A stretch of DNA of 64,000 nucleotides. Origin: Candidatus Tectomicrobia bacterium RIFCSPLOWO2_12_FULL_69_37. Lineage in GTDB: Bacteria; UBA8248. Of the stretch, positions 3,312 to 43,861 are shown in pieces. The notes below the pieces were generated by a model that had not been told where the DNA came from, did not search any database, and was given only the letters and a program-made list of their open reading frames with translations. Each line of letters starts with the position of its first letter. The first letter of the stretch is position 1. Both the position numbers and the translations under genes were made by a program. The stretch is taken from assembly GCA_001790955.1 (NCBI GenBank), contig MGDP01000039.1, forward strand, positions 193-64,192, read 5' to 3'.

Positions 3312-3776
3312 ATGTTCGACGGCAAGAAGGTGATCGCCCTGGGGGAGAGGGACGGCATCCCGGGCCCTGTCCTGGCCGAGTGCCTCCAGGCGGCGGGCAC
3401 GGAAGTCGTCTACCAGACGACGGCCTGCTTCGTCTGAACCTCCGCGGGAGCCATGGACCTGGACAACCAGGCCACCATCAAGCAGCTCGTGGATGCGCAC
3501 GGGGCGGAGAACTTGGTGGTGGTGCTGGGGATGAGCGGGGAGGGCGTCCGGATCGCCGCCGAGACGCTCACCACCGGCGACCCCAGCTGGGCCGGGCCCT
3601 TGGCGGGAGTCTCGTTGGGACTCCCGGTGTACCATATCTTGGAGGAGCGGGTCCGCACGCGTCTCCCGGCTGAGATCTACGCCGAGAAGGTGCAGCTCAT
3701 GGAGATGGTGCTCGACGTGGCGCAGATCGAGGACGCGCTCGCCGGGCTGCGCAAGACCCAGGCGAAGCGGAGCTGA
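3312..3776 (+). CDS. grdA: glycine reductase complex selenoprotein A (GrdA), in-frame TGA = Sec at 3435..3437
   Basis: Strong RBS GAGGAGG before ATG 3312. Translation '[61 protein letters not shown]...' matches the canonical GrdA Sec motif CFVUTAAGAMDLENQ. The track ORF 3453..3776 is the in-frame continuation. Confidence 0.9.
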
Positions 3777-3788
3777 GGGGGATCGGCC

Positions 3789-5066
3789 ATGCGGCTCGAA
3801 ATGGGAATCTTCCCGGTCAGGAAGGTCGCCTTCGGGAGCCGGACCGGCTACCGGGACGGCTCCCTCACCGTCAACGCCCAGGAGCTCAAGGAAGTGATGA
3901 TGGCCGAGGGCGGCTTTTTGGACGTGCGCTTCGACCTCGCCCACCCGGGCGAGAGCGTGCGCATCGTCCACAACGTGGACGCTGTCGAGCCCCTCTACAA
4001 GGTGAGCGGCCGCTCGTGCGCCTTCCCGGGGTTCCTGGGGCGCGCCCTGACCGCGGGAGAGGGCCGCACCCACAAGCTCGCCGGGATGTGCATTCTCAGC
4101 ACCACCCGCTACCCCGGCCCCCAGACGGGCATCATGACCTTCCGGGACAGCATCATCGACATGAGCGGGCCCGGCGCCCTCTACTGCGCGACCTCGGAGA
4201 CGGCGAACCTCGTCGCCTGCTACGAGCCCATCCCGACCGCCTCGAACGGCGAGCACGACGCGGCCATCCGGCTCGCCACCTTGCGGGGGGCCTCCTGCCT
4301 GGCCCGGTGCACCGCGGACCTGAAACCCGAGAAGATCGAGGTGTACGAGCTCGGCGAGGTGGGCCCCACCCTGCCCCGCATCGTGTACGTGGACCAGGTG
4401 ATGCACCAGGCGGTGATGGTGGCCACCTACGTCTACGGCAAGGACCTGGACGACTCCCTCCCCACCCTCATCCACCCCAACGAGATGCTGGACGGGGCGG
4501 TAGTCGGGGCGAACTACAAGACCGGCCAGAAGGTGCCGACCTACCTCCACTGCAACAAGCCGGTCCTCCTCGAGCTCTACCGCCGCCACGGCAAGGACGT
4601 GAACTTCGCCGGGGTGATCATCACCCGTGGGCACCGCGACAACCAGGCCCTCAAGGAGCGCTCGGCCCAGTACGTGGCCAAGCTGGCCAAGCTCCTCAAG
4701 GCGGACGGCGCCGTCCTCGCCCACGAGGGGGGGGGCAATTCCTCGGTGGACTACTTCCTGACCGTCCAGGCTCTTGAGCAGGCGGGCGTCAAGGCGGTGC
4801 CCATCATGTACGAGACGGCAGACCCGGGGAGCGGGGACTTCCCCCTCGTCTACACCGTCCCCGAGGCGGACGCCATCGTGAGCAAGGGGCTCCAGGGCCA
4901 GTCGATCGTCCTCCCCGCCGTCGAGCGCGTGATCGGCTCCCCCAAGTTCAAGCCCTACGGCGGGACCCTGGTCGACACGGCTTCGAGCTTCGAGGTGACC
5001 AACGCCGACCTCTACGCCGACGAATGGGGAATGGAGCTCAGCCACTTCACCGGGAAGGACTACTGA
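3789..5066 (+). CDS. grdE: glycine/betaine reductase protein B proprotein (GrdE family)
   Basis: N-terminus MRLEMGIFPVRKVAFG... is typical of GrdE/GrdG/GrdI proproteins. About 425 aa. Placed between grdA and grdB. Confidence 0.85.
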   Translation: MRLEMGIFPVRKVAFGSRTGYRDGSLTVNAQELKEVMMAEGGFLDVRFDLAHPGESVRIVHNVDAVEPLYKVSGRSCAFPGFLGRALTAGEGRTHKLAGMCILSTTRYPGPQTGIMTFRDSIIDMSGPGALYCATSETANLVACYEPIPTASNGEHDAAIRLATLRGASCLARCTADLKPEKIEVYELGEVGPTLPRIVYVDQVMHQAVMVATYVYGKDLDDSLPTLIHPNEMLDGAVVGANYKTGQKVPTYLHCNKPVLLELYRRHGKDVNFAGVIITRGHRDNQALKERSAQYVAKLAKLLKADGAVLAHEGGGNSSVDYFLTVQALEQAGVKAVPIMYETADPGSGDFPLVYTVPEADAIVSKGLQGQSIVLPAVERVIGSPKFKPYGGTLVDTASSFEVTNADLYADEWGMELSHFTGKDY

Positions 5067-5103
5067 GGCCCAGGCGCCCCTGGGCGAGCCAGGAGAGACC
5101 GGA

Positions 5104-6432
5104 ATGCCCACGAACAAGAAGATTCGCGTCGTCCACTACGTCAACCAGTTCTTCGCGGGGGTGGGAGGGGAGGAGAAGGGGGACCATCCCCTGACCTTCA
5201 GGGAGGGCCCCGTGGGCCCCGGCCTCCTGCTCCAGCGCCTGCTGGGGGCGGAGGGGGAGGTGGCCGGCACCCTCTTCTGCGGGGACAACGCCTACGCCGC
5301 CGATCCAGGGGCCGAAGCGGCCGCCCTCGACCACATCGAGCGGCTTGCGCCCGACCTCCTCGTGGCCGGGCCCGCCTTTAACGCGGGCCGCTACGGCCTG
5401 GCCTGCGCCCGCCTCTGCCTCGCCGTGAAGGCGGGCGGCAAGACGGCGGCGGTGACGGGGATGTACCCCGAAAACCCGGGGGTCTCGGCCTGCCGCCGCC
5501 AGGTGCACATCGTCCCCACCGGGGACACCGCCGGGGGGATGGGAGAAGCCCTTCCCAAGATCGTCCGCCTGGGCCTCAAGCTCGCGCGCGGGGAGGAGCT
5601 GGGCCCGGCCCAGGAGGAGGGCTACCTGCCCCGGGGGGTCCGCTACAACGCTTTCGCCGAGGTGCCCGCCGCCCAGCGGGCGGTGGACATGGTGCTCAAG
5701 AAGGTGCGAGGGGAGCCCTTCACCTCGGAGTTCACCTTCCTGGGCTTCGACCGGGTGGCCCCGCCCGCGCCCCTCAAGGGCCTCAAGGGCAAGAAGATCG
5801 CCGTGGTCACCGAGGCGGGGATGGTGCCCCCCGGGAACCCCGACCGCATCCCCGGCTCCCGGGCCTCCACCCATCACTGGAACAAGTACTCCTTCGGGGG
5901 GCGGACGGAGCTCCCCAAGGGCTCCTTCATCTGCATCCACGGGGGCTTCAACACCGTCTTCGTGAACGAGGACCCGGACCGGATGCTCGCCCTGGACGCC
6001 CTCAAGCAGCTCGAGCGGGAGGGCGTCTTCGAGAAGCTCCACGAGGAGTTCCTGAGCACCTGCGGGAACGGCGGCCCCGTCCACGTCATGAAGCAAGTGG
6101 GCCAGGCCATGGCCAAGGAGGCCCGCGCCGCCGGGGTGGAGGGAGTGGTCCTGCCCGCCACCTGAGGGACGGGCACGCGTAGCGGCGCTACGCTGGCGAA
6201 GGAGCTGGAGAGGGAAGGCATCCCCACCGTGCTGGTCACCTGCCTCCCCGACGTGGCGAAGGACGTGGGGGCCAACCGCATCCTCAAGACGCGGGCGGGC
6301 CACTTCCATCATCCCTTCGGGGATCCGAGCCGCCCCGAGGCCTCCGAGCGGCGGTGGCGCCTCGAAGCCACCAAGAAGGCCCTGGAGGTCCTGACCGAGC
6401 CCGTGACGGAGCCCACGGTCTTCGAGTACTAG
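5104..6432 (+). CDS. grdB: glycine/betaine reductase selenoprotein B (GrdB family), in-frame TGA = Sec at 6163..6165
   Basis: N-terminus MPTNKKIRVVHYVNQFFAGVGGEE is canonical GrdB. Track ORFs 5104..6165 and 6229..6432 are in the same frame. Reading through gives '...VLPAT-U-GTGTRSGATLAKELEREGIPTVLVTCLPDVAKDVGANRIL...', matching the GrdB Sec motif (UGTCTRCGAT...). Total 442 aa. Confidence 0.9.
6177..6193 (+). promoter_or_regulatory. candidate bacterial SECIS hairpin for grdB
   Basis: 17-nt perfect hairpin gcgtagc-ggc-gctacgc beginning exactly 11 nt after the UGA. This is the spacing and size of the E. coli fdhF minimal SECIS. Confidence 0.5.
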
Positions 6433-10144: not shown

Positions 10145-10950
10145 GATTCACCTCCCGAGGAGGAGCCGTTCTTCTCATCGCGTCCATTTCGGATCCGCCG
10201 CTGGATGACCCACGAAACGGCCCCCAAAGCGACTGCCAGCCCGATCTTGACGTGGGGCACCACCTGCATGGCCGTCTTGGTGTACTCGCGCAGCGAAATC
10301 TTCGGGAGGTCGGTGCGGTAGCCCAGCACCTCGAACGGCACGTTGGACAGGTGAAGCACGCAGGTCCCGCCGACCTCGTCCTTCCCATAGATGTGGTGGA
10401 CGTACCCTCGCGGGTTGCGGTGGATCCGGTTCTCGGCCTCTGCGATGAGATCCTCCCGCTCGCCGAAGACGATGGCGTCCGTCGGGCAGACCTTCGCGCA
10501 GGCCGGCTCCTCCCCCGCCGCCACCCGGTCGGCGCACATGGTGCACTTGGTGATTTTGGGGATGGCCTTGTCCCACTCGAAGCGCGGGACCAGGAACGGG
10601 CAGGCAAGCTGGCAGTAGCGGCAGCCGAGACACCGATCCGGGTCGTAAACGACGGGACCCTCCTTGGTCTTCTGCAACGCGGACACAGGACATGCCGTGG
10701 CGCACGAAGGCTCAATGCAGTGGAAGCACTGAAGATGGCCGAACACCCACTCGAAGCGCCCGTTGGTCTGCGCTTCGTTGTAGGTCACGACCCGCCACGT
10801 CTTCGACGAAAGATCCCGCGGGTTTTGATACCCCTTGGGGGACGCGAAGAAGCGGGTCTTCTCGGCCGGAAGCTCGTTCCACTCCTTGCAGGCCACCTGG
10901 CAGCCCCGGCAGCCGACGCAGCGCGTCACGTCGATGAGGAGCGCTTTCAC
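10141..10950 (-). CDS. fdhB: formate dehydrogenase iron-sulfur subunit (FdnH-like, 4x[4Fe-4S], C-terminal TM anchor)
   Basis: Multiple CxxCxxCxxxCP ferredoxin motifs (CVGCRGCQVAC, CFHCIEPSCATACP, CLGCRYCQLACP, CTMCADR...CAKVCP). C-terminal hydrophobic helix. Overlaps fdhA by 4 nt. Confidence 0.85.
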   Translation of the reverse strand: MKALLIDVTRCVGCRGCQVACKEWNELPAEKTRFFASPKGYQNPRDLSSKTWRVVTYNEAQTNGRFEWVFGHLQCFHCIEPSCATACPVSALQKTKEGPVVYDPDRCLGCRYCQLACPFLVPRFEWDKAIPKITKCTMCADRVAAGEEPACAKVCPTDAIVFGEREDLIAEAENRIHRNPRGYVHHIYGKDEVGGTCVLHLSNVPFEVLGYRTDLPKISLREYTKTAMQVVPHVKIGLAVALGAVSWVIQRRIRNGRDEKNGSSSGGES

Positions 10951-13900
10951 GACGCACCTCCCTTCGCCTTATAGACGTTGCAGAGGAACGCCTTGTACTC
11001 CGGGATCATGGTGTTGGCGTCCCCCACGTGCGGCGTCAGGACGTTCGCGCTGTCGCCCTTGACGATGCCTTGGTAGCCGAAGTGCCAGATAACGCCGACC
11101 TCGTGGACGATCTTCCCGTTGTGCCGGAAGGGCTCGAAGCGGCGCGTCACCAGGGCGTAGCCGCTCATCTTGCCCCGCGCCGTCTCCAGGGTGACGCGGT
11201 CTCCGTTCTGAACGCCCTTCTGCCGGGCGAGGTCCACTCCCATCTCGACGAAGACATCCGGCACCAGCTCCGCCAGCCAGGGCAGGTTGCGCGTCATCGC
11301 CCCGGCCTGCCAGTGCTCGCTCACGCGGTAGGTCGTCCCCACGATCGGGAAGCGGTCGGCGGTCCCGACGGCGTTCATCTCGGGTGCGTCCTTGTGCCAG
11401 AGCTTGATGGCCGGGTTGACCTGCTGCCGCGACATCATGTTCGGCAGCGGGCTCTCCAAGGGCTCATAGTGCTCGGGCAGAGGCCCGTCGTTGAGGTTGC
11501 CAGCGAAGAGCCACGCGTGGCCGTCCGGCTTCATGATGAAGGGATGCTTCTCCCCCGGCGGCCACGGGCCGTCAGGCACGTCGCCCTCCCACTGTTTTTT
11601 CCCGGCGTTCCAGCGGATGACCCACCGCTTGGGGTTCCAGGGCTTGCCGGTGGGGTCGACCGAGGCGCGGTTGTAGAGGATCCGCCGGTTGACCGGCCAG
11701 CACCACGCCCAATCGGGGTAGAGGCCGATCCCGTTCATGGCGTCCCGTTTGCTCCGCCGGGCCATCTTGTTGTCCTTCTTCTCCGGGCCGGCGTAGCTGT
11801 TGCAGTAGAGCCAGTTGCCAGAGCAGGTGGAGCCGTCGTCCTGCAGCAGGGCGAAGCCGGGAACCTGCTCGCCCTTCTTGTACTGTCTGCCGCCGACGGT
11901 CTTCTCCTGGGTGAAGTAGCCGTTGATTTCCTTCGCCACCCGGTGCACGTCGGGCTCCTTGCGGACGTCGACCTCCTCGCCCGTGCCGTAGTCCCAGGCG
12001 AGGCGGGTGATGGGCTCGGGGAAGACGCCGCCCGCCGCGTACTCCTTCTTCACCGCCTTGCACAGGGCGTCCAGGATCCACAGGTCGGACCGGGAGTTCC
12101 CCACCGGATGGACCGCCGCGTAGCGCCACTGCGCCCAGCGGGCGCTGTTCGTGATGCTCCCTTCTTTCTCCACCGAAGACGCCGACGGTAGGAGGAATAT
12201 CTCGGTCTTGATGTCGGCGGGCTTCACGCCCGGGCGCTTCCAGATCGATGCCGTCTCCGTCTCCCAGAGATCGACGGCCACCATCCAATCGAGCTTCTCC
12301 AGCGCCTTGATCTCCTTGTTCGTGTTCGGCCCGCCGACCGCCGGGTTCTGACCGAAGAGCATGAGACCCTTGATCTGGCCTGCATACATCGCCTCGAACA
12401 GCGATATCCACGAGTAGTCGCCGCTGCGCTTGGGGATGTAGCTGAACGCGAAGTCGTTCTCCCGAGCGGCGTGGCCGCCGTACCAGGCTTTGAGCAGCGA
12501 GACGATGTACTTCGGATAGTTACCCCACCAGTTGGCCGATTTCGGGTCGTTCGTCCTGGGTGTGTTGCTCGCCAGGTAGGCCGCGAGCGATTGGTCGGCG
12601 GCGGTGGGCGAGGCCAGGTAGCCCGGCAGGATGTGGAAGAGCAGGGCCATGTCGGTGGAGCCCTGCACGTTGGACTCGCCCCGGAGGGCGTTCACCCCCC
12701 CGCCCGCCAAGCCGACGTTGCCCAGGAGGAGCTGGAGGATCGCGTAGGTCCGGATGTTCTGGGTCCCGTGCGTGTGCTGGGTCGCCCCCATGGCGTAAAG
12801 CCAGGTGCCCACGCGGTCGGGCGCCCAGGTCGAGGTGTAATGGCGGCAGACCTGGAGATAGACATCCCGCGGCGCGCCGGTGATGTTGCACACCGTGTCC
12901 ACGTCATAGCGCTGAAAATGTTTCTTCAACAGCTGGAACGCGCAGCGGGGGTGTTGGAGGGTCATGTCCCGCACCGGCATGCCTTTCCCATCGAGCTCGT
13001 ACGCCCAGTGGGACTTGTCGTAGCTGCGAGACGCCGGGTTGTAGCCCGTGAACAGGCCGTCATCGAATCCGTACTTTTCAGAGATGATGAACGAGGCATT
13101 CGTGTAGTTGAGGACGTAGTCCTTCTGGACGAAATCGTTCTGGAGAGCATAGTTGATCATCCCGCCCACGAAAGCGATGTCGGTGCCGCTACGGAACTTG
13201 CAGTAGACGTCGGCGAAGGAAGAGGTACGGGTGTAGCGCGGATCCGCACTGACGACGATGGCCCCCTTCTCTTTCGCGCGTGTTATCCATTTCGTGGCGA
13301 TGGGATGGTTCTCCGCCGCGTTCGAGCCCATGATCATGATCACGTCGGCGTGGACCATGTCGCTCCAGTGATTGGTCATCGCGCCCCGCCCGAAGGTCGC
13401 CGCCAAACTGGCGACGGTGGAGCTGTGTCATATCCGCGCCTGGTGCTCCAGGTAGGCGACCCCCAGCGCCCGGGCGAGCTTCGAGTAGAGGTAGCACTCC
13501 TCGTTGTCCAGCGCCGCGCCGCCGAGGCACGCGATGCCCTCGGTTCGGTTCACGGTCCTGCCCCCCTCCTCGCGGCGGAAGGTGGCGTCGCGGGTGCGCT
13601 TGATGCGCTTGGCGATCTCCGGGACGGCCCACTCCCAGGTCTTCTCCTCCCAGCGGCTACCCCCCGGGGCCCGGTAGAGGACGCTCCGCAGGCGCCGCTC
13701 GTTCACCGCCACCTGATAGAGGGCCATGCCCTTGGAGCAGAGCGAGCCTTCGTTGATGGGGTGATCGGGGTCGCCTTCGATGCTGACCACCTTCCCGTCC
13801 CTGGCAGAGACGATGAGCCCGCACCCCACCCCGCAGTACGGGCATATGGTCGTCGACTGCTTGGTGCGAACCGTCTTCATCGGGGGTGTTTGGGCGGCGT

Positions 13901-13994
13901 GGGCCCTCCCTTTTTGAGGGCCGAAAAGAGAGACGGCCGTCCCCAGTGCGCTTCCGCCCGTTGCCCCCAAAAAGGTACGCCGCGAAATCTTCAT
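10947..13994 (-). CDS. fdhA: formate dehydrogenase catalytic subunit (FdnG/FdoG-like, molybdopterin, TAT-exported), in-frame TGA = Sec at 13428..13430
   Basis: TAT signal MKISRRTFLGATGG. Fe-S cluster motif CPYCGVGCG. Track ORFs 13428..13994 and 10947..13406 are in frame, separated by TGA plus 7 codons. Read-through gives '...YLEHQARI-U-HSSTVASLAATFGRGAMTNHWSDM...', almost identical to E. coli FdnG 'NQARVUHGPTVASLAPTFGRGAMTNHW'. Total 1015 aa, the same length as FdnG. Confidence 0.9.
13396..13415 (-). promoter_or_regulatory. candidate SECIS hairpin for fdhA
   Basis: Minus-strand mRNA has stem gucgcc / ggcgac with a GU-containing loop, starting about 12 nt after the UGA. Confidence 0.4.
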
Positions 13995-40354: not shown

Positions 40355-41377
40355 CTAAATCTTGTAAACGCGCCTCGCGTTGCCGGAGAGTATCTTCTCC
40401 TGATCCCCCCTGGACAAGCGGGAGAGGCCGGGAATCTCCGCCGCCCGGCCCAAGAGGCCCACGTCCCAGGGGTAATCCGTCCCGTAGAGGATGGCGTCCG
40501 CGCCGAGCGTCTTCACGGCGAACTCCAGGCAGTCCGCGTTGTGGATGACGGTGTCGTAGTACAGCTTCCCCAGGTAAGCGTCCGGGGCCTTGGCCCCTCG
40601 CACGCGGGTCTCCTCCCGCACCCCGTAGCCGTGCTGCCAGCGCCCCCGGATCCAGGGGGTGAAGCCGCCCAGGTGGGCGAGGACAACCTTGAGCCTCGGG
40701 AACCGGTCGAGCACCCCGCCGAAGATGAGGCAGGCCGCCGCGATGGTGGTGTCGAGCGGGTTGGCGATCAAGTTGTGCATGTAGAAATCCTTCATCCGGT
40801 CCCCGGCCCCGATGATGTCCCCCGGGTGGATGAAGACCGGCACGTCCAGCGACTCCGCCTGGGCCCAGAAGGCGTCCAGCGCCGGGTCGCTCAGGTTGAC
40901 GCCTGCCACGTTCGTGCCGATCTTCACCCCGATGTGGCCCCGCCTCACCGAGCGCTCCAGCTCGGCCGCGGCCGCCCCGGGATCCTGAAGGGGCACGTTG
41001 CACATGCAGTGGAACTTGTCCGGCATCCTCTCCGCCACGGCGGCGATCTCGTCGTTGTACATCGCCGAGATCTCCCGGTTGAGCCCGGCGTCGAGGCCGT
41101 AGAAGGTCATGTTCGTGATCGCGGAGAGGATCTGCCGGTCCACCCCCATGTTCCGCATGTGGGTCAGGCGGAGGTCGAGGTTGATGAGCTCCTCCGGCAG
41201 CCGGTTCCGCATGACCGTCCGCTTGCCGAGGACGGTGATGTTCGCGACGACCTCCTCGCCCCTCTTCCTGCCAGGCTGAACCGTCACGTGCGGGGCGAAA
41301 CGGCCGCTGCGGATCACGCCCAGGCACGTCTCCGGCAGGATATGCGCATGGAAATCGATGATCATGTTTCTCCTCAA
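40355..41377 (-). CDS. amidohydrolase-2 family (ACMSD-like) metal-dependent hydrolase
   Basis: N-terminus 'MIIDFHAHILPE', about 340 aa, TIM-barrel amidohydrolase signature. Confidence 0.75.
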   Translation of the reverse strand: MRRNMIIDFHAHILPETCLGVIRSGRFAPHVTVQPGRKRGEEVVANITVLGKRTVMRNRLPEELINLDLRLTHMRNMGVDRQILSAITNMTFYGLDAGLNREISAMYNDEIAAVAERMPDKFHCMCNVPLQDPGAAAAELERSVRRGHIGVKIGTNVAGVNLSDPALDAFWAQAESLDVPVFIHPGDIIGAGDRMKDFYMHNLIANPLDTTIAAACLIFGGVLDRFPRLKVVLAHLGGFTPWIRGRWQHGYGVREETRVRGAKAPDAYLGKLYYDTVIHNADCLEFAVKTLGADAILYGTDYPWDVGLLGRAAEIPGLSRLSRGDQEKILSGNARRVYKI

Positions 41378-41613
41378 ACTGCGGCGCGCTTCGGAAAGGA
41401 GTCAACCATCCTATCACGGGCTCGTGGAACCAAGGGAGCCGTGCGGCCTCCTTTCCCCGCGCGTCCCAGGCTCCAGGCGAAGACACTCCGCAGGGCGGGA
41501 CGGCCGAATCCCATTGCCGGATCCGCCGGAAGGCCATACCATCGAGGCGGCCCCCAATTGCGGCTGACGCCAGGTGCCTTGTGCCGCCCGGGCAGCCATC
41601 AGGAGATCCCACG

Positions 41614-42171
41614 ATGGAAGAAAAACCCTTGAACCCCTTCGAACAAAGCACCGTCGCCGGCGAGCGCATCACCGACAAGCCGGAGCTGCCCCGCCAGGGG
41701 TTCGCCATGCACCTCGTGGCCGACGCCGAGACCATCGAGGGGGAGGCCCACCTCAAGCTGGGGAAGTCCCGGGGCTTCGAGGTCTACTCGGACGAGCCGC
41801 CGCACATCGGCGGGACCAACAAGTTCCCTCCGCCGATGAGCTACCTCGCCATGGGCATCGGCTTCTGACTGCTCACCCAGGTGGCGCGGTACGCGTCCAT
41901 GATGAAGCTGAAGGTCAAAAAGGCCAGCTGCCACGTGGAGTTCGACTACATGCTTTCCGGGTCGGTCCTCAAAGGCACCGTCAAGACCACTTGGAAGGGG
42001 GTTTCCACCCGCCTCGACATCGACTCGGAGGAGCCCGCCGCGAAGATAGCCGCCCTGGTCCGGAACGCCAAGGGGGGCTGCTTCGCGGAGAACTTGGTGG
42101 TCCAGCAGGTCCCGCTCCACGGCGCGGTCTTCCTCAAAGGCCAGCCGGTCGAACCGAACGAGGCACCCTGA
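41614..42171 (+). CDS. OsmC/Ohr-family peroxiredoxin-like selenoprotein (Sec TGA at 41866..41868 replacing the peroxidatic Cys)
   Basis: RBS aggag 8 nt before ATG 41614. Translation '...DEPPHIGGTNKFPPPMSYLAMGIGF-U-LLTQVARYASMMKL...GGCFAENL...'. The in-frame downstream track ORF 41881..42171 is the continuation. The TGA aligns with the conserved 'LAGC' Cys of OsmC. Confidence 0.75.
41881..41898 (+). promoter_or_regulatory. candidate SECIS hairpin for the OsmC-like gene
   Basis: guggcgcg-GUA-cgcguc stem-loop with G/U-rich apical loop, beginning 12-14 nt after the UGA. Confidence 0.35.
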
Positions 42172-42184
42172 GGCCCCCCCCGCC

Positions 42185-43861
42185 CTACTCGGCGTAAGCC
42201 CCCGGCGCCAGGGCCTCGATGTCGGAAACCACCTCCACCACCACGGGGCCGCCCTTGATGGAGAGGGCCTTCTGGAGGGCGCCCTTCAGCTCGCCCGGCT
42301 TCTCCACGCGGATGGCCGCCGCGCCCATGGACTCGGCCACCTTGGAGAGGTTCGTCTGCTTGAAGGTCCAGAGCTGGCGCGAGTTCGCCTGCTGCTTCCC
42401 GCCGTAGGCCCGGGAGTAGATGTTGGTCTCCTGGTTCTGGGCGCAGTTGTTGTTCACCACGATGATCGCGTTGATGTTCCAGCGGACGGCCGTCTCGAGC
42501 TCCCCGATGTGGTACCAGAAGCCCGCGTCCCCCGAGAAGAGGACCACCGGCCGGTCTGGCAGGGCGCACTTGGCGCCGAGCGTGGCCGGGAAGCCCCACC
42601 CCAGGTGCCCGGCGCAGCGGATGTAGCCCTGGCCCGGGTGGTTGAGGTCGAGGTAACCCCCGGTCCACATGCCCGAGTGCCCGGTGTCCGAGACCACGAA
42701 GGCGTCGGGAGGCAGGTTGTCGCTCAGCTCCTTGATGATGCGGACGGGGTGGATGGGGGAGCTGTCCGAGTGGTAGAGGGGGGCGAACTCCGCCCGCCAG
42801 TCCGCCACCATCTTCTGGCAGTGGGCCACCCACTCCTTGCGGGAGGCCGCCGTCGAGGCGTCCGCCGCTTCGATGAGCTTGCGGAGCGAAACCTTGGCGT
42901 CCCCCAGGATGCTCCCCCGGAGGGGATAGTTGCGCCCCAGATCCTCGGGGTTGATGTCCAGCTGGACGGCGGGAACTCCAATCTTCGGCACGCGCCATGT
43001 GTGCGTCGTCATGCCTCCCGCCCGCGTGCCGGCGAAGAACACCAGGTCCGCCTGCCCCACCAGCACGTTCGCGCTCCGGCGGGAGTAGGTCCCCACCACG
43101 CCGAGCGAGAGCGGATGGTTGCCCGGGATGAGCTCCTTGCCGGTCAGGGAGGTGGCCACCGGGATCTGGAGCTTCTCCGCCAGCTCCACCAGCTCTCGCT
43201 TCGCGCCCGAGCTCCGCACCCCGCCGCCCGCCACGATGATGGGCTTCTTCGCCCCCGCCAGCGCCTTGGCCACCTGCCGGACGTGCTCCGGCTGGGGCTC
43301 CGGCCGGAAGGGGGGGTAGCGGCTGAACTGCTCCTCGGCCAAGACCTCGAGGTCGGCCGCCTCCTCCTCGATCTGGCCGAGCTTGCCGCGGAGGCGCAGG
43401 TGCACCGGCCCCGGATTGCCCGTCGTGGCCGTCCGGAAGGCCTGGCGGATGAGGTCGGGGAAGCGCCGCACGTCGTCGATATAGGCGTTGAACTTGGTCA
43501 CGCTCTCGAAGGCGTCGAAGTCCTCCGCCTCCTGGTAGTCGTGGCGGTAGCGGTACATGGGGTCGTATCCGCCCGTGAAGGCGATGACCGGCGAGCCCGC
43601 CAGATGGGCGTCCCGCAGGCCGGCGGCCAGGTTCAGCCCGCCCACGATCTGGGCCATGGTGATCCCAGGGCGGCCGGAGGCCCGGGCGAAACCGTCGGCC
43701 ATGTAGACGGCCGCCTTCTCGCCGTGGGTGATGACGCGCGAGATGCCCGTCCCCTCGAGATCCATCACCGCGAGGGCCCGGCTCAGCACGGTGGGCACGA
43801 AGAAGATATGGGTCACCCCGTACGCCTTCAGCGCCCGCGACACGTATTCCGCTCCGCTCAT
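42185..43861 (-). CDS. thiamine-pyrophosphate enzyme (acetolactate synthase large-subunit / sulfoacetaldehyde acetyltransferase-like)
   Basis: Start MSGAEYVSRALKAYGVTHIFFVP. TPP-binding 'GDAGFWYHIGELETAV...NNN'. About 558 aa. Upstream part of the track ORF is non-coding. Confidence 0.8.
   Translation of the reverse strand: MSGAEYVSRALKAYGVTHIFFVPTVLSRALAVMDLEGTGISRVITHGEKAAVYMADGFARASGRPGITMAQIVGGLNLAAGLRDAHLAGSPVIAFTGGYDPMYRYRHDYQEAEDFDAFESVTKFNAYIDDVRRFPDLIRQAFRTATTGNPGPVHLRLRGKLGQIEEEAADLEVLAEEQFSRYPPFRPEPQPEHVRQVAKALAGAKKPIIVAGGGVRSSGAKRELVELAEKLQIPVATSLTGKELIPGNHPLSLGVVGTYSRRSANVLVGQADLVFFAGTRAGGMTTHTWRVPKIGVPAVQLDINPEDLGRNYPLRGSILGDAKVSLRKLIEAADASTAASRKEWVAHCQKMVADWRAEFAPLYHSDSSPIHPVRIIKELSDNLPPDAFVVSDTGHSGMWTGGYLDLNHPGQGYIRCAGHLGWGFPATLGAKCALPDRPVVLFSGDAGFWYHIGELETAVRWNINAIIVVNNNCAQNQETNIYSRAYGGKQQANSRQLWTFKQTNLSKVAESMGAAAIRVEKPGELKGALQKALSIKGGPVVVEVVSDIEALAPGAYAE

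Follow-up and report, generated by a model that had tools for sequence, protein, structure and literature searches.

A gene-like stretch at 41614..42171 (+) of the window, by which we mean the whole 64-kb piece of DNA analyzed, carries an in-frame TGA at 41866-41868. Does this codon end a short gene, or is it read as selenocysteine (Sec) within a longer one, and what would such a protein do? We conclude that 41614..42171 very probably encodes an OsmC/Ohr selenoprotein of the NF041052 family in which UGA is read as Sec, with a peroxide chemistry assigned by analogy. The predicted coding sequence specifies 185 residues including Sec85, and translation places the real stop at TGA 42169-42171. A Shine-Dalgarno-like AGGAG read from the sequence (41601..41605, +) is followed by an 8-nt spacer and then by the ATG at 41614, so the ribosome-binding site and start codon named in the preliminary description are both present. 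The frame from 41614 to 42171 is broken only at 41866-41868, in the context PPMSYLAMGIGF-U-LLTQVARYA, and translation agrees with the earlier claim that it continues across this codon. A mechanical listing of open reading frames (ORFs) cuts the locus into pieces of 95 and 96 aa. Third-position GC content (GC3) 3' of the TGA is 0.91, and tblastn matches in homologous loci span residues 1-183 of the window protein.

Profile searches place a single domain across the TGA. With the codon read as Cys, the Pfam OsmC model (PF02566) scores 48.7 bits against a gathering cutoff of 27.5 (E = 1.1e-12); this match covers residues 67-167 (profile positions 1-96 of 100), and the TGA lies inside it, which settles the Pfam check that had been proposed. 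The NCBIfam model NF041052, "OsmC-related (seleno)protein," gives 163.2 bits (curated cutoff, 95; E = 3.6e-48) over residues 35-176 (profile positions 3-144 of 144). In phmmer alignments to PDB sequences, the TGA falls on the Cys of 3cje (GLTGCVMTQ), 2opl (ALSGCLTT), 2onf (LASCLLT), and 9wo1 (GLGACTAM). This is the first conserved Cys, so the TGA lies within, and not outside, the OsmC active-site motif, at the position that the preliminary description had assigned to it. In Ohr/OsmC enzymes, the first conserved Cys sits on helix alpha1 and is peroxidatic. The earlier description of the replaced residue as the peroxidatic Cys thus holds for its position, while the label itself rests on established knowledge of Ohr/OsmC.

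The remaining candidate active-site residues can be placed in the same way. By alignment to the conserved helix Cys, the UGA at 41866..41868 (+) corresponds to Sec85 and opens a U-L-L-T (UxxT) motif. Cys156 (TGC, 42079..42081, +), the presumed resolving residue, lies in GGCFAEN, is invariant in alignments A2 and A4, and aligns by phmmer with the second conserved Cys of 3cje (KKGCF, in KKGCFLE) and 2onf (EKYCF); the second Cys of GGCFAENL is therefore retained, as had been stated. A third conserved Cys, Cys106 (TGC, 41929..41931, +; ASCHV), is likewise invariant in A2 and A4 and aligns by phmmer with the Cys of VECRV in 3cje. Arg18, Glu61, Arg92, and Glu159 are invariant in the family alignment; in Ohr/OsmC, a catalytic Arg and a Glu activate the peroxidatic residue. 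We note that an N-terminal motif, S-T-x-P-G-E-R-I-T-D-K-P-E-L-P (41650-41694, residues 13-27), is nearly invariant family-wide and lies outside both the PF02566 (67-167) and NF041052 (35-176) matches, in a region modeled with a pLDDT of ~40. This motif, which includes GERITDKPELP, could be a source of the catalytic Arg.

When alignment A2 was searched as a profile against PDB sequences, no characterized OsmC/Ohr protein gave a significant E-value (1vla, E = 0.68); thus, the link to the characterized enzymes rests on the fold match. The fold was modeled on P0001, a natural Cys form that is 65% identical to the window protein. The AF2 model of P0001 (pLDDT 74.3, pTM 0.73) has a beta3-helix-beta2-helix-beta layout, and its Cys lies nine residues into a long helix. 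When this model was compared with the PDB by Foldseek, the top 49 matches were all OsmC/Ohr proteins, including E. coli OsmC (1qwi/1nye), Pseudomonas aeruginosa Ohr (1n2f), and Xylella Ohr (1zb9).

Relatives were collected by scanning a single genome for each species, using peptide patterns without the Sec/Cys position, followed by tblastn confirmation. This retrieved 216 confirmed relatives, of which 80 loci were kept. Across these 80 loci and six metagenomic loci (86 in total), all copies (99/99) carry TGA at this position followed in frame by LLTQxxRYA. The loci come from Burkholderiales/"Betaproteobacteria" metagenome-assembled genomes (MAGs), Nitrospinota, an Acidimicrobiia MAG, and others; the best relative of the window protein, 83% identical, is from a groundwater "Betaproteobacteria" MAG. 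A protein search retrieved four full-length homologs (P0001-P0004) with Cys at the Sec position (GIGFCLLTQ), and the DNA of these four Cys forms (L087, L088, L089, and L091) has TGC at the Sec codon. The comparison with Cys-containing orthologs that had been suggested could therefore be made, and it returned the expected substitution.

Several database "proteins" stop exactly at GIGF or start at MMK just past the Sec site, which is the usual footprint of gene callers halting at a Sec codon. One database protein (P0006) ends at the TGA and another (P0007) shows W there, the latter presumably from a code-4 style translation. Homologs that terminate at this position had been named in advance as grounds for abandoning the Sec reading; P0006 and a public 84-aa ORF ending at the TGA are gene-calling artifacts, because the DNA runs on in frame with a conserved C-terminal half. 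Fourteen public metagenomic contigs (L092-L094 among them) contain the identical gene in the same arrangement; there, gene callers report a pair of hypothetical ORFs without Pfam matches, one of 84 aa (41614-41868) and one of 90 aa (41899-42171). This two-ORF call is a systematic misannotation of the selenoprotein, and once the Sec codon is recognized, the two unannotated ORFs become one complete redox enzyme.

Some relatives have unusual architectures. In Nitrospinaceae MAGs (L002, 4716-5849, and also L003-L006), a single 377-codon ORF encodes two tandem OsmC-like domains; in L002, each domain has its own in-frame TGA (4968 and 5541) and SECIS core. Gene callers cut this tandem gene into pieces of 84, 180, and 91 aa. 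OsmC/Ohr proteins function as intertwined dimers; thus, the tandem protein may represent a pseudo-dimer within one chain, carrying two Sec residues. Two to four paralogous copies of the Sec gene lie within ~10 kb of one another in L010, L011, L012, L013, L016, and L028; in L013, a Burkholderiales MAG, OsmC-like TGAs occur at +6253, -3529, -10499, and -2790. Two divergent paralog types carry compensatory SECIS variants, UCGCG...CGCGA (L012 and L013) and GGGCG...CGCCC (L028). In the window itself, tblastn found no OsmC-like paralog.

If the UGA is decoded as Sec, a signal is expected directly downstream, and a SECIS-type hairpin is indeed predicted inside the coding sequence at 41881..41900 (+) from RNAfold, codon freezing, and covariation. 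The core helix pairs 41883-41888 with 41892-41897 around an apical GUA loop (41889-41891). Opening of the closing G-C pair would turn this loop into GGUAC, and an extension of the stem to 41881/41900 is possible with U41896 bulged. The whole element, GUGGCGCG-GUA-CGCG(U)CCAU, spans 41881-41900. Numbered from the U of UGA as 1, it reads G16-U17-G18-G19-C20-G21-C22-G23 / G24-U25-A26 / C27-G28-C29-G30-(U31)-C32-C33-A34-U35, such that the stem begins 12 nt past the UGA and the apical G-U falls at nt 24-25. The preliminary description had placed a stem-loop with a GGUAC-type apex 12 to 14 nt past the UGA; the element is present, starts at 12 nt, and is both conserved and covarying.

The conservation is at the level of nucleotides. 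The GUA loop (nt 24-26) is invariant in 60/60 distinct sequences. Codon usage was compared between 89 distinct Sec-form sequences and four Cys-form genes. In the Sec forms, codons +6 to +9 (Ala-Arg-Tyr-Ala) are GCG in 86/86, CGG in 89/89, TAC in 89/89, and GCG in 88/89 sequences; in the same sequences, Ala at -6 and +19 uses all four synonyms, Tyr at -8 is split between TAC (n = 41) and TAT (n = 42), and free variation is seen at the Leu and Thr codons lying between UGA and hairpin. The Cys forms retain the R-Y-A residues but spell them differently (GCA CGT TAT GCG, GCC CGG TAC GCC, GTC CGT TAT GCC, and GTG CGG TAC GCG), and their hairpins fold at -0.6 to -6.3 kcal/mol versus -9.5 kcal/mol for the Sec form. 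The six-pair core (18-23 with 27-32) is paired in 98.1% of cells, and three of the six pairs change on both sides: 18-32 (UA/GC), 19-31 (GC/GU/UA), and 20-30 (CG/GC). The observed values were not reached in any of 500 column shuffles, and sliding the pairing partner by 1 or 3 columns reduced pairing to <10%. Judged by this sequence comparison, the hairpin is under nucleotide-level selection beyond the protein code.

Two other searches were less informative about the element. Its single-sequence fold energy was no better than that of shuffled sequences (z = -0.06 and -0.85), a score that says little for a short hairpin in 66% GC DNA. Rfam returned no SECIS or other relevant family, either for the whole window at gathering thresholds or for an 800-nt region at E ≤ 10; the sole hit, a lncRNA, was a chance match. 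One further near-match to the hairpin core (21673, 1 mismatch) is no more than chance would produce. Taken together, the comparative evidence (TGA in 99/99 copies, frozen synonymous sites, and covariation) is decisive for a predicted recoding signal that exceeds chance, and Sec decoding at 41866-41868 is a strongly supported prediction.

Other genes in the window bear on whether the host uses Sec. A GC3 segment scan flagged further candidate Sec genes as same-frame coding segments joined only by TGA. A formate dehydrogenase-N alpha subunit (FdhA; 10947..13994, -; TIGR01553, 1312.8 bits) with a Tat signal (RRTFLGA) has a TGA at 13428-13430, the canonical Sec site (HQARI-U-HSSTVASL). On the other strand, 3312-6432 (+) holds a glycine/sarcosine/betaine-reductase-like cluster, which is unusual in a genome of ~66% GC: GrdA (3312..3776; TGA 3435-3437, CFV-U-TSAG), a GrdE/GrdG-like proprotein (3789..5066), and a GrdB-family selenoprotein B (5104..6432; TGA 6163-6165; TIGR01918, 422 bits). 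The GrdB-family protein does not reach the equivalog cutoffs of GrdB, GrdF, or GrdH. The FdhA and GrdB hairpins start 11 nt past the UGA, with GUU (FdhA) and GCG (GrdB) loops at nt 22-25. The best hairpin 3' of the GrdA UGA (within 3435-3494, +) differs from those of FdhA, GrdB, and the OsmC-like gene: it starts later (nt 20-40), and its ACAA loop contains no G.

ARAGORN found no tRNA, and hence no tRNA-Sec, within the 64-kb window, and selA, selB, and selD were not found among the subset of window ORFs scanned. The in-frame TGAs of FdhA, GrdA, and GrdB nevertheless imply that the host decodes Sec and that the machinery would be present elsewhere in its genome. Beside the OsmC-like gene, these genes point to a selenium-using host with a broad selenoproteome.

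The OsmC-like gene looks monocistronic, since its upstream neighbor is divergent and its downstream neighbor is convergent. Upstream lies an Amidohydro_2 gene (40355..41377, -) and, beyond it, an MBL-fold hydrolase; downstream lies a TPP-dependent acetolactate-synthase-like enzyme (~42185..43861, -), followed by a BKACE-family enzyme and then an ABC ATPase. When the window was compared with all loci by BLASTN, no similarity was seen beyond the OsmC-like gene itself. Clustering of the neighborhoods of 87 loci revealed no cross-lineage redox partner and no conserved peroxide-related neighbor. The top clusters from this analysis were spurious high-GC ORFs; the genuinely conserved neighbors are lineage specific (a Bug-family binding protein, an aquaporin-like gene, an ABC ATPase, and an FAD enzyme).

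Several of these lineage-specific associations are recorded here as observations. An aquaporin/MIP-like gene lies <~2 kb from the OsmC-like gene in ~24 loci of the "QPLCYIAMGVGF-U" group (e.g., L043, 4106-4879, -), a proximity that may reflect shared ancestry only. In L001, the closest metagenomic Sec homolog, a glutamate-cysteine ligase gene adjoins divergently (987-2564, -). In L089, the Cys-form gene lies between a CMD/AhpD-like gene and a luciferase-like monooxygenase (2235-2864, +; 3616-4530, -), and a luciferase-like gene also lies beside the Nitrospinaceae tandem gene in L002.

For the decoding step, we propose that SelB·GTP·Sec-tRNASec would bind the hairpin at 41881-41900 as the ribosome nears the UGA and deliver Sec there, in competition with release factor 2. 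Sec85 would then lie near the start of long helix alpha1, at the site of the first conserved (peroxidatic) Cys. Ohr and OsmC use a two-step mechanism with a peroxidatic and a resolving residue. By analogy, the Sec85 selenolate may attack a hydroperoxide at its O-O bond, releasing an alcohol and leaving Sec85 as a selenenic acid, after which Cys156 (GGCFAEN) may form a selenenylsulfide. A cellular dithiol reductant, with thioredoxin or a lipoylated protein as candidates, would reduce the selenenylsulfide. On this analogy, peroxide reduction is the probable function of the protein, held with more reserve than its identity as a selenoprotein.

The alternative that survives best accepts a true selenoprotein but holds that it is not a hydroperoxide reductase, Sec85 serving some other selenol-based redox role; thiol-disulfide exchange and detoxification of another electrophile are possible candidates. 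We consider this unlikely, though deserving of weight, because the nearest solved relatives are uncharacterized and the family has extra conserved features (GERITDKPELP and Cys106), which lie outside or beyond the canonical two-Cys scheme. The 2005 description of the family places it in COG1765, "predicted redox protein" (PMC1088965), and the NF041052 clade is nearest to COG1765/YhfA-like "predicted redox proteins." The lack of a conserved peroxide-related neighbor among the 87 clustered loci points the same way. Against it, the protein agrees with OsmC/Ohr in its fold and at both canonical Cys positions. To our knowledge, every branch of the OsmC/Ohr superfamily tested biochemically reduces hydroperoxides, and replacement of Cys by Sec is typical of peroxidatic sites.

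A related and somewhat more doubtful proposal is that the NF041052 clade is a functionally distinct, essentially obligate-selenium branch of OsmC rather than "Ohr with Sec." The Sec state is dominant (99/99 copies in genomes versus four Cys forms found), and the clade has its own N-terminal GERITDKPELP motif, a third Cys, multi-paralog arrays, and two-Sec tandem fusions. If this proposal were true, the clade could use a different substrate and a different reductant from known OsmC/Ohr enzymes. The SECIS sequence is also nearly the same in MAGs of Proteobacteria, Nitrospinota, and Actinobacteriota, a hint that gene and SECIS may have spread as a single transferable unit.

Recoding of the UGA to a residue other than Sec, whether by near-cognate insertion of Trp or Cys or through an alternative genetic code, is very improbable. 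The W of P0007 is the point in its favor. TGA is the commonest stop in the window, ending 22 of the 43 GC3-supported segments; thus, the genetic code is standard and the recoding site specific. Homologs with Cys at this position are the classic Sec/Cys signature, the hairpin is of the SelB type at canonical spacing, and the window holds the canonical selenoproteins FdhA, GrdA, and GrdB, all of which argue against insertion of another residue. That the TGA is a genuine stop, leaving a pseudogene or independent ORFs of 84 aa and ~90 aa, is the most improbable reading of all, for although gene callers report 84-aa and 90-aa ORFs without Pfam matches in the 14 metagenomic contigs and P0006 stops at this codon, the TGA lies inside a single OsmC domain, TGA recurs in every copy across phyla with the downstream half conserved in frame, the Cys-form orthologs are uninterrupted, GC3 past the TGA is 0.91, and the hairpin is under nucleotide-level selection.

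With the Sec reading of the window gene preferred, it remains to set it beside known systems. In the E. coli fdhF transcript, the SECIS is a hairpin in the coding sequence 11 to 12 nt past the UGA, with a loop G-U ~23 to 25 nt from the U of UGA. The window element resembles it in spacing and in the loop G-U. It differs in its stem (GCGCG/CGCGC), in its loop (GUA/GGUAC, not GGUC), and in the possible bulged U on the 3' side.

Compared with Ohr (1n2f and 1zb9) and E. coli OsmC (1qwi/1nye), the family has the same fold (Foldseek probability of 1.00 for the P0001 model), with two conserved redox residues in common, one on helix alpha1 and one close to the C-terminal helix. The window protein has Sec in place of the peroxidatic Cys, only 10 to 17% identity in structural alignments, ~55 extra N-terminal residues (containing GERITDKPELP), and a third Cys, Cys106. 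Among solved structures, the best match in both sequence and fold is 3cje, the OsmC-like Jann_2040 of Jannaschia sp. CCS1 (phmmer E = 8e-9; Foldseek TMt of 0.69 for the P0001 model). All three Cys positions align (GC..., ECRV, and KKGCF), although 3cje has Cys and not Sec, is ~18 to 30% identical to the window protein, and lacks the N-terminal extension. Along with 2opl and 2onf, 3cje is a structural-genomics entry without demonstrated activity.

The closest known system is the OsmC-like selenoprotein family itself. It was reported as a new selenoprotein family with a UXXT motif in the 2005 Sargasso Sea study of Zhang, Fomenko, and Gladyshev, which described three OsmC-like Sec sequences, Cys homologs, and a predicted SECIS (PMC1088965). 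A 2008 analysis of the GOS data lists five OsmC-like Sec sequences (pfam02566, UxxT) (PMC2398784), and a table in a 2026 review includes the OsmC-like selenoprotein (PF02566, UxxT) (PMC13188914). Our literature search found no biochemical characterization of any Sec-containing OsmC-like protein. The preliminary description called the family known but rare: it is known (NF041052; PMC1088965, PMC2398784, PMC13188914), and with 216 relatives found by tblastn it is not especially rare. The family dates from a 2005 description and is covered by a curated model (NF041052), so the feature is already known; the window gene is a correct instance of a curated selenoprotein family, one more member that opens no new question. 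It shares with the 2005 family the PF02566 domain, a UxxT Sec at the first conserved Cys, Cys homologs, and, immediately 3' of the UGA, a SECIS hairpin whose apical loop has a conserved G. There is no substantive difference between the two; the window copy comes from a high-GC (~66%) uncultured organism.
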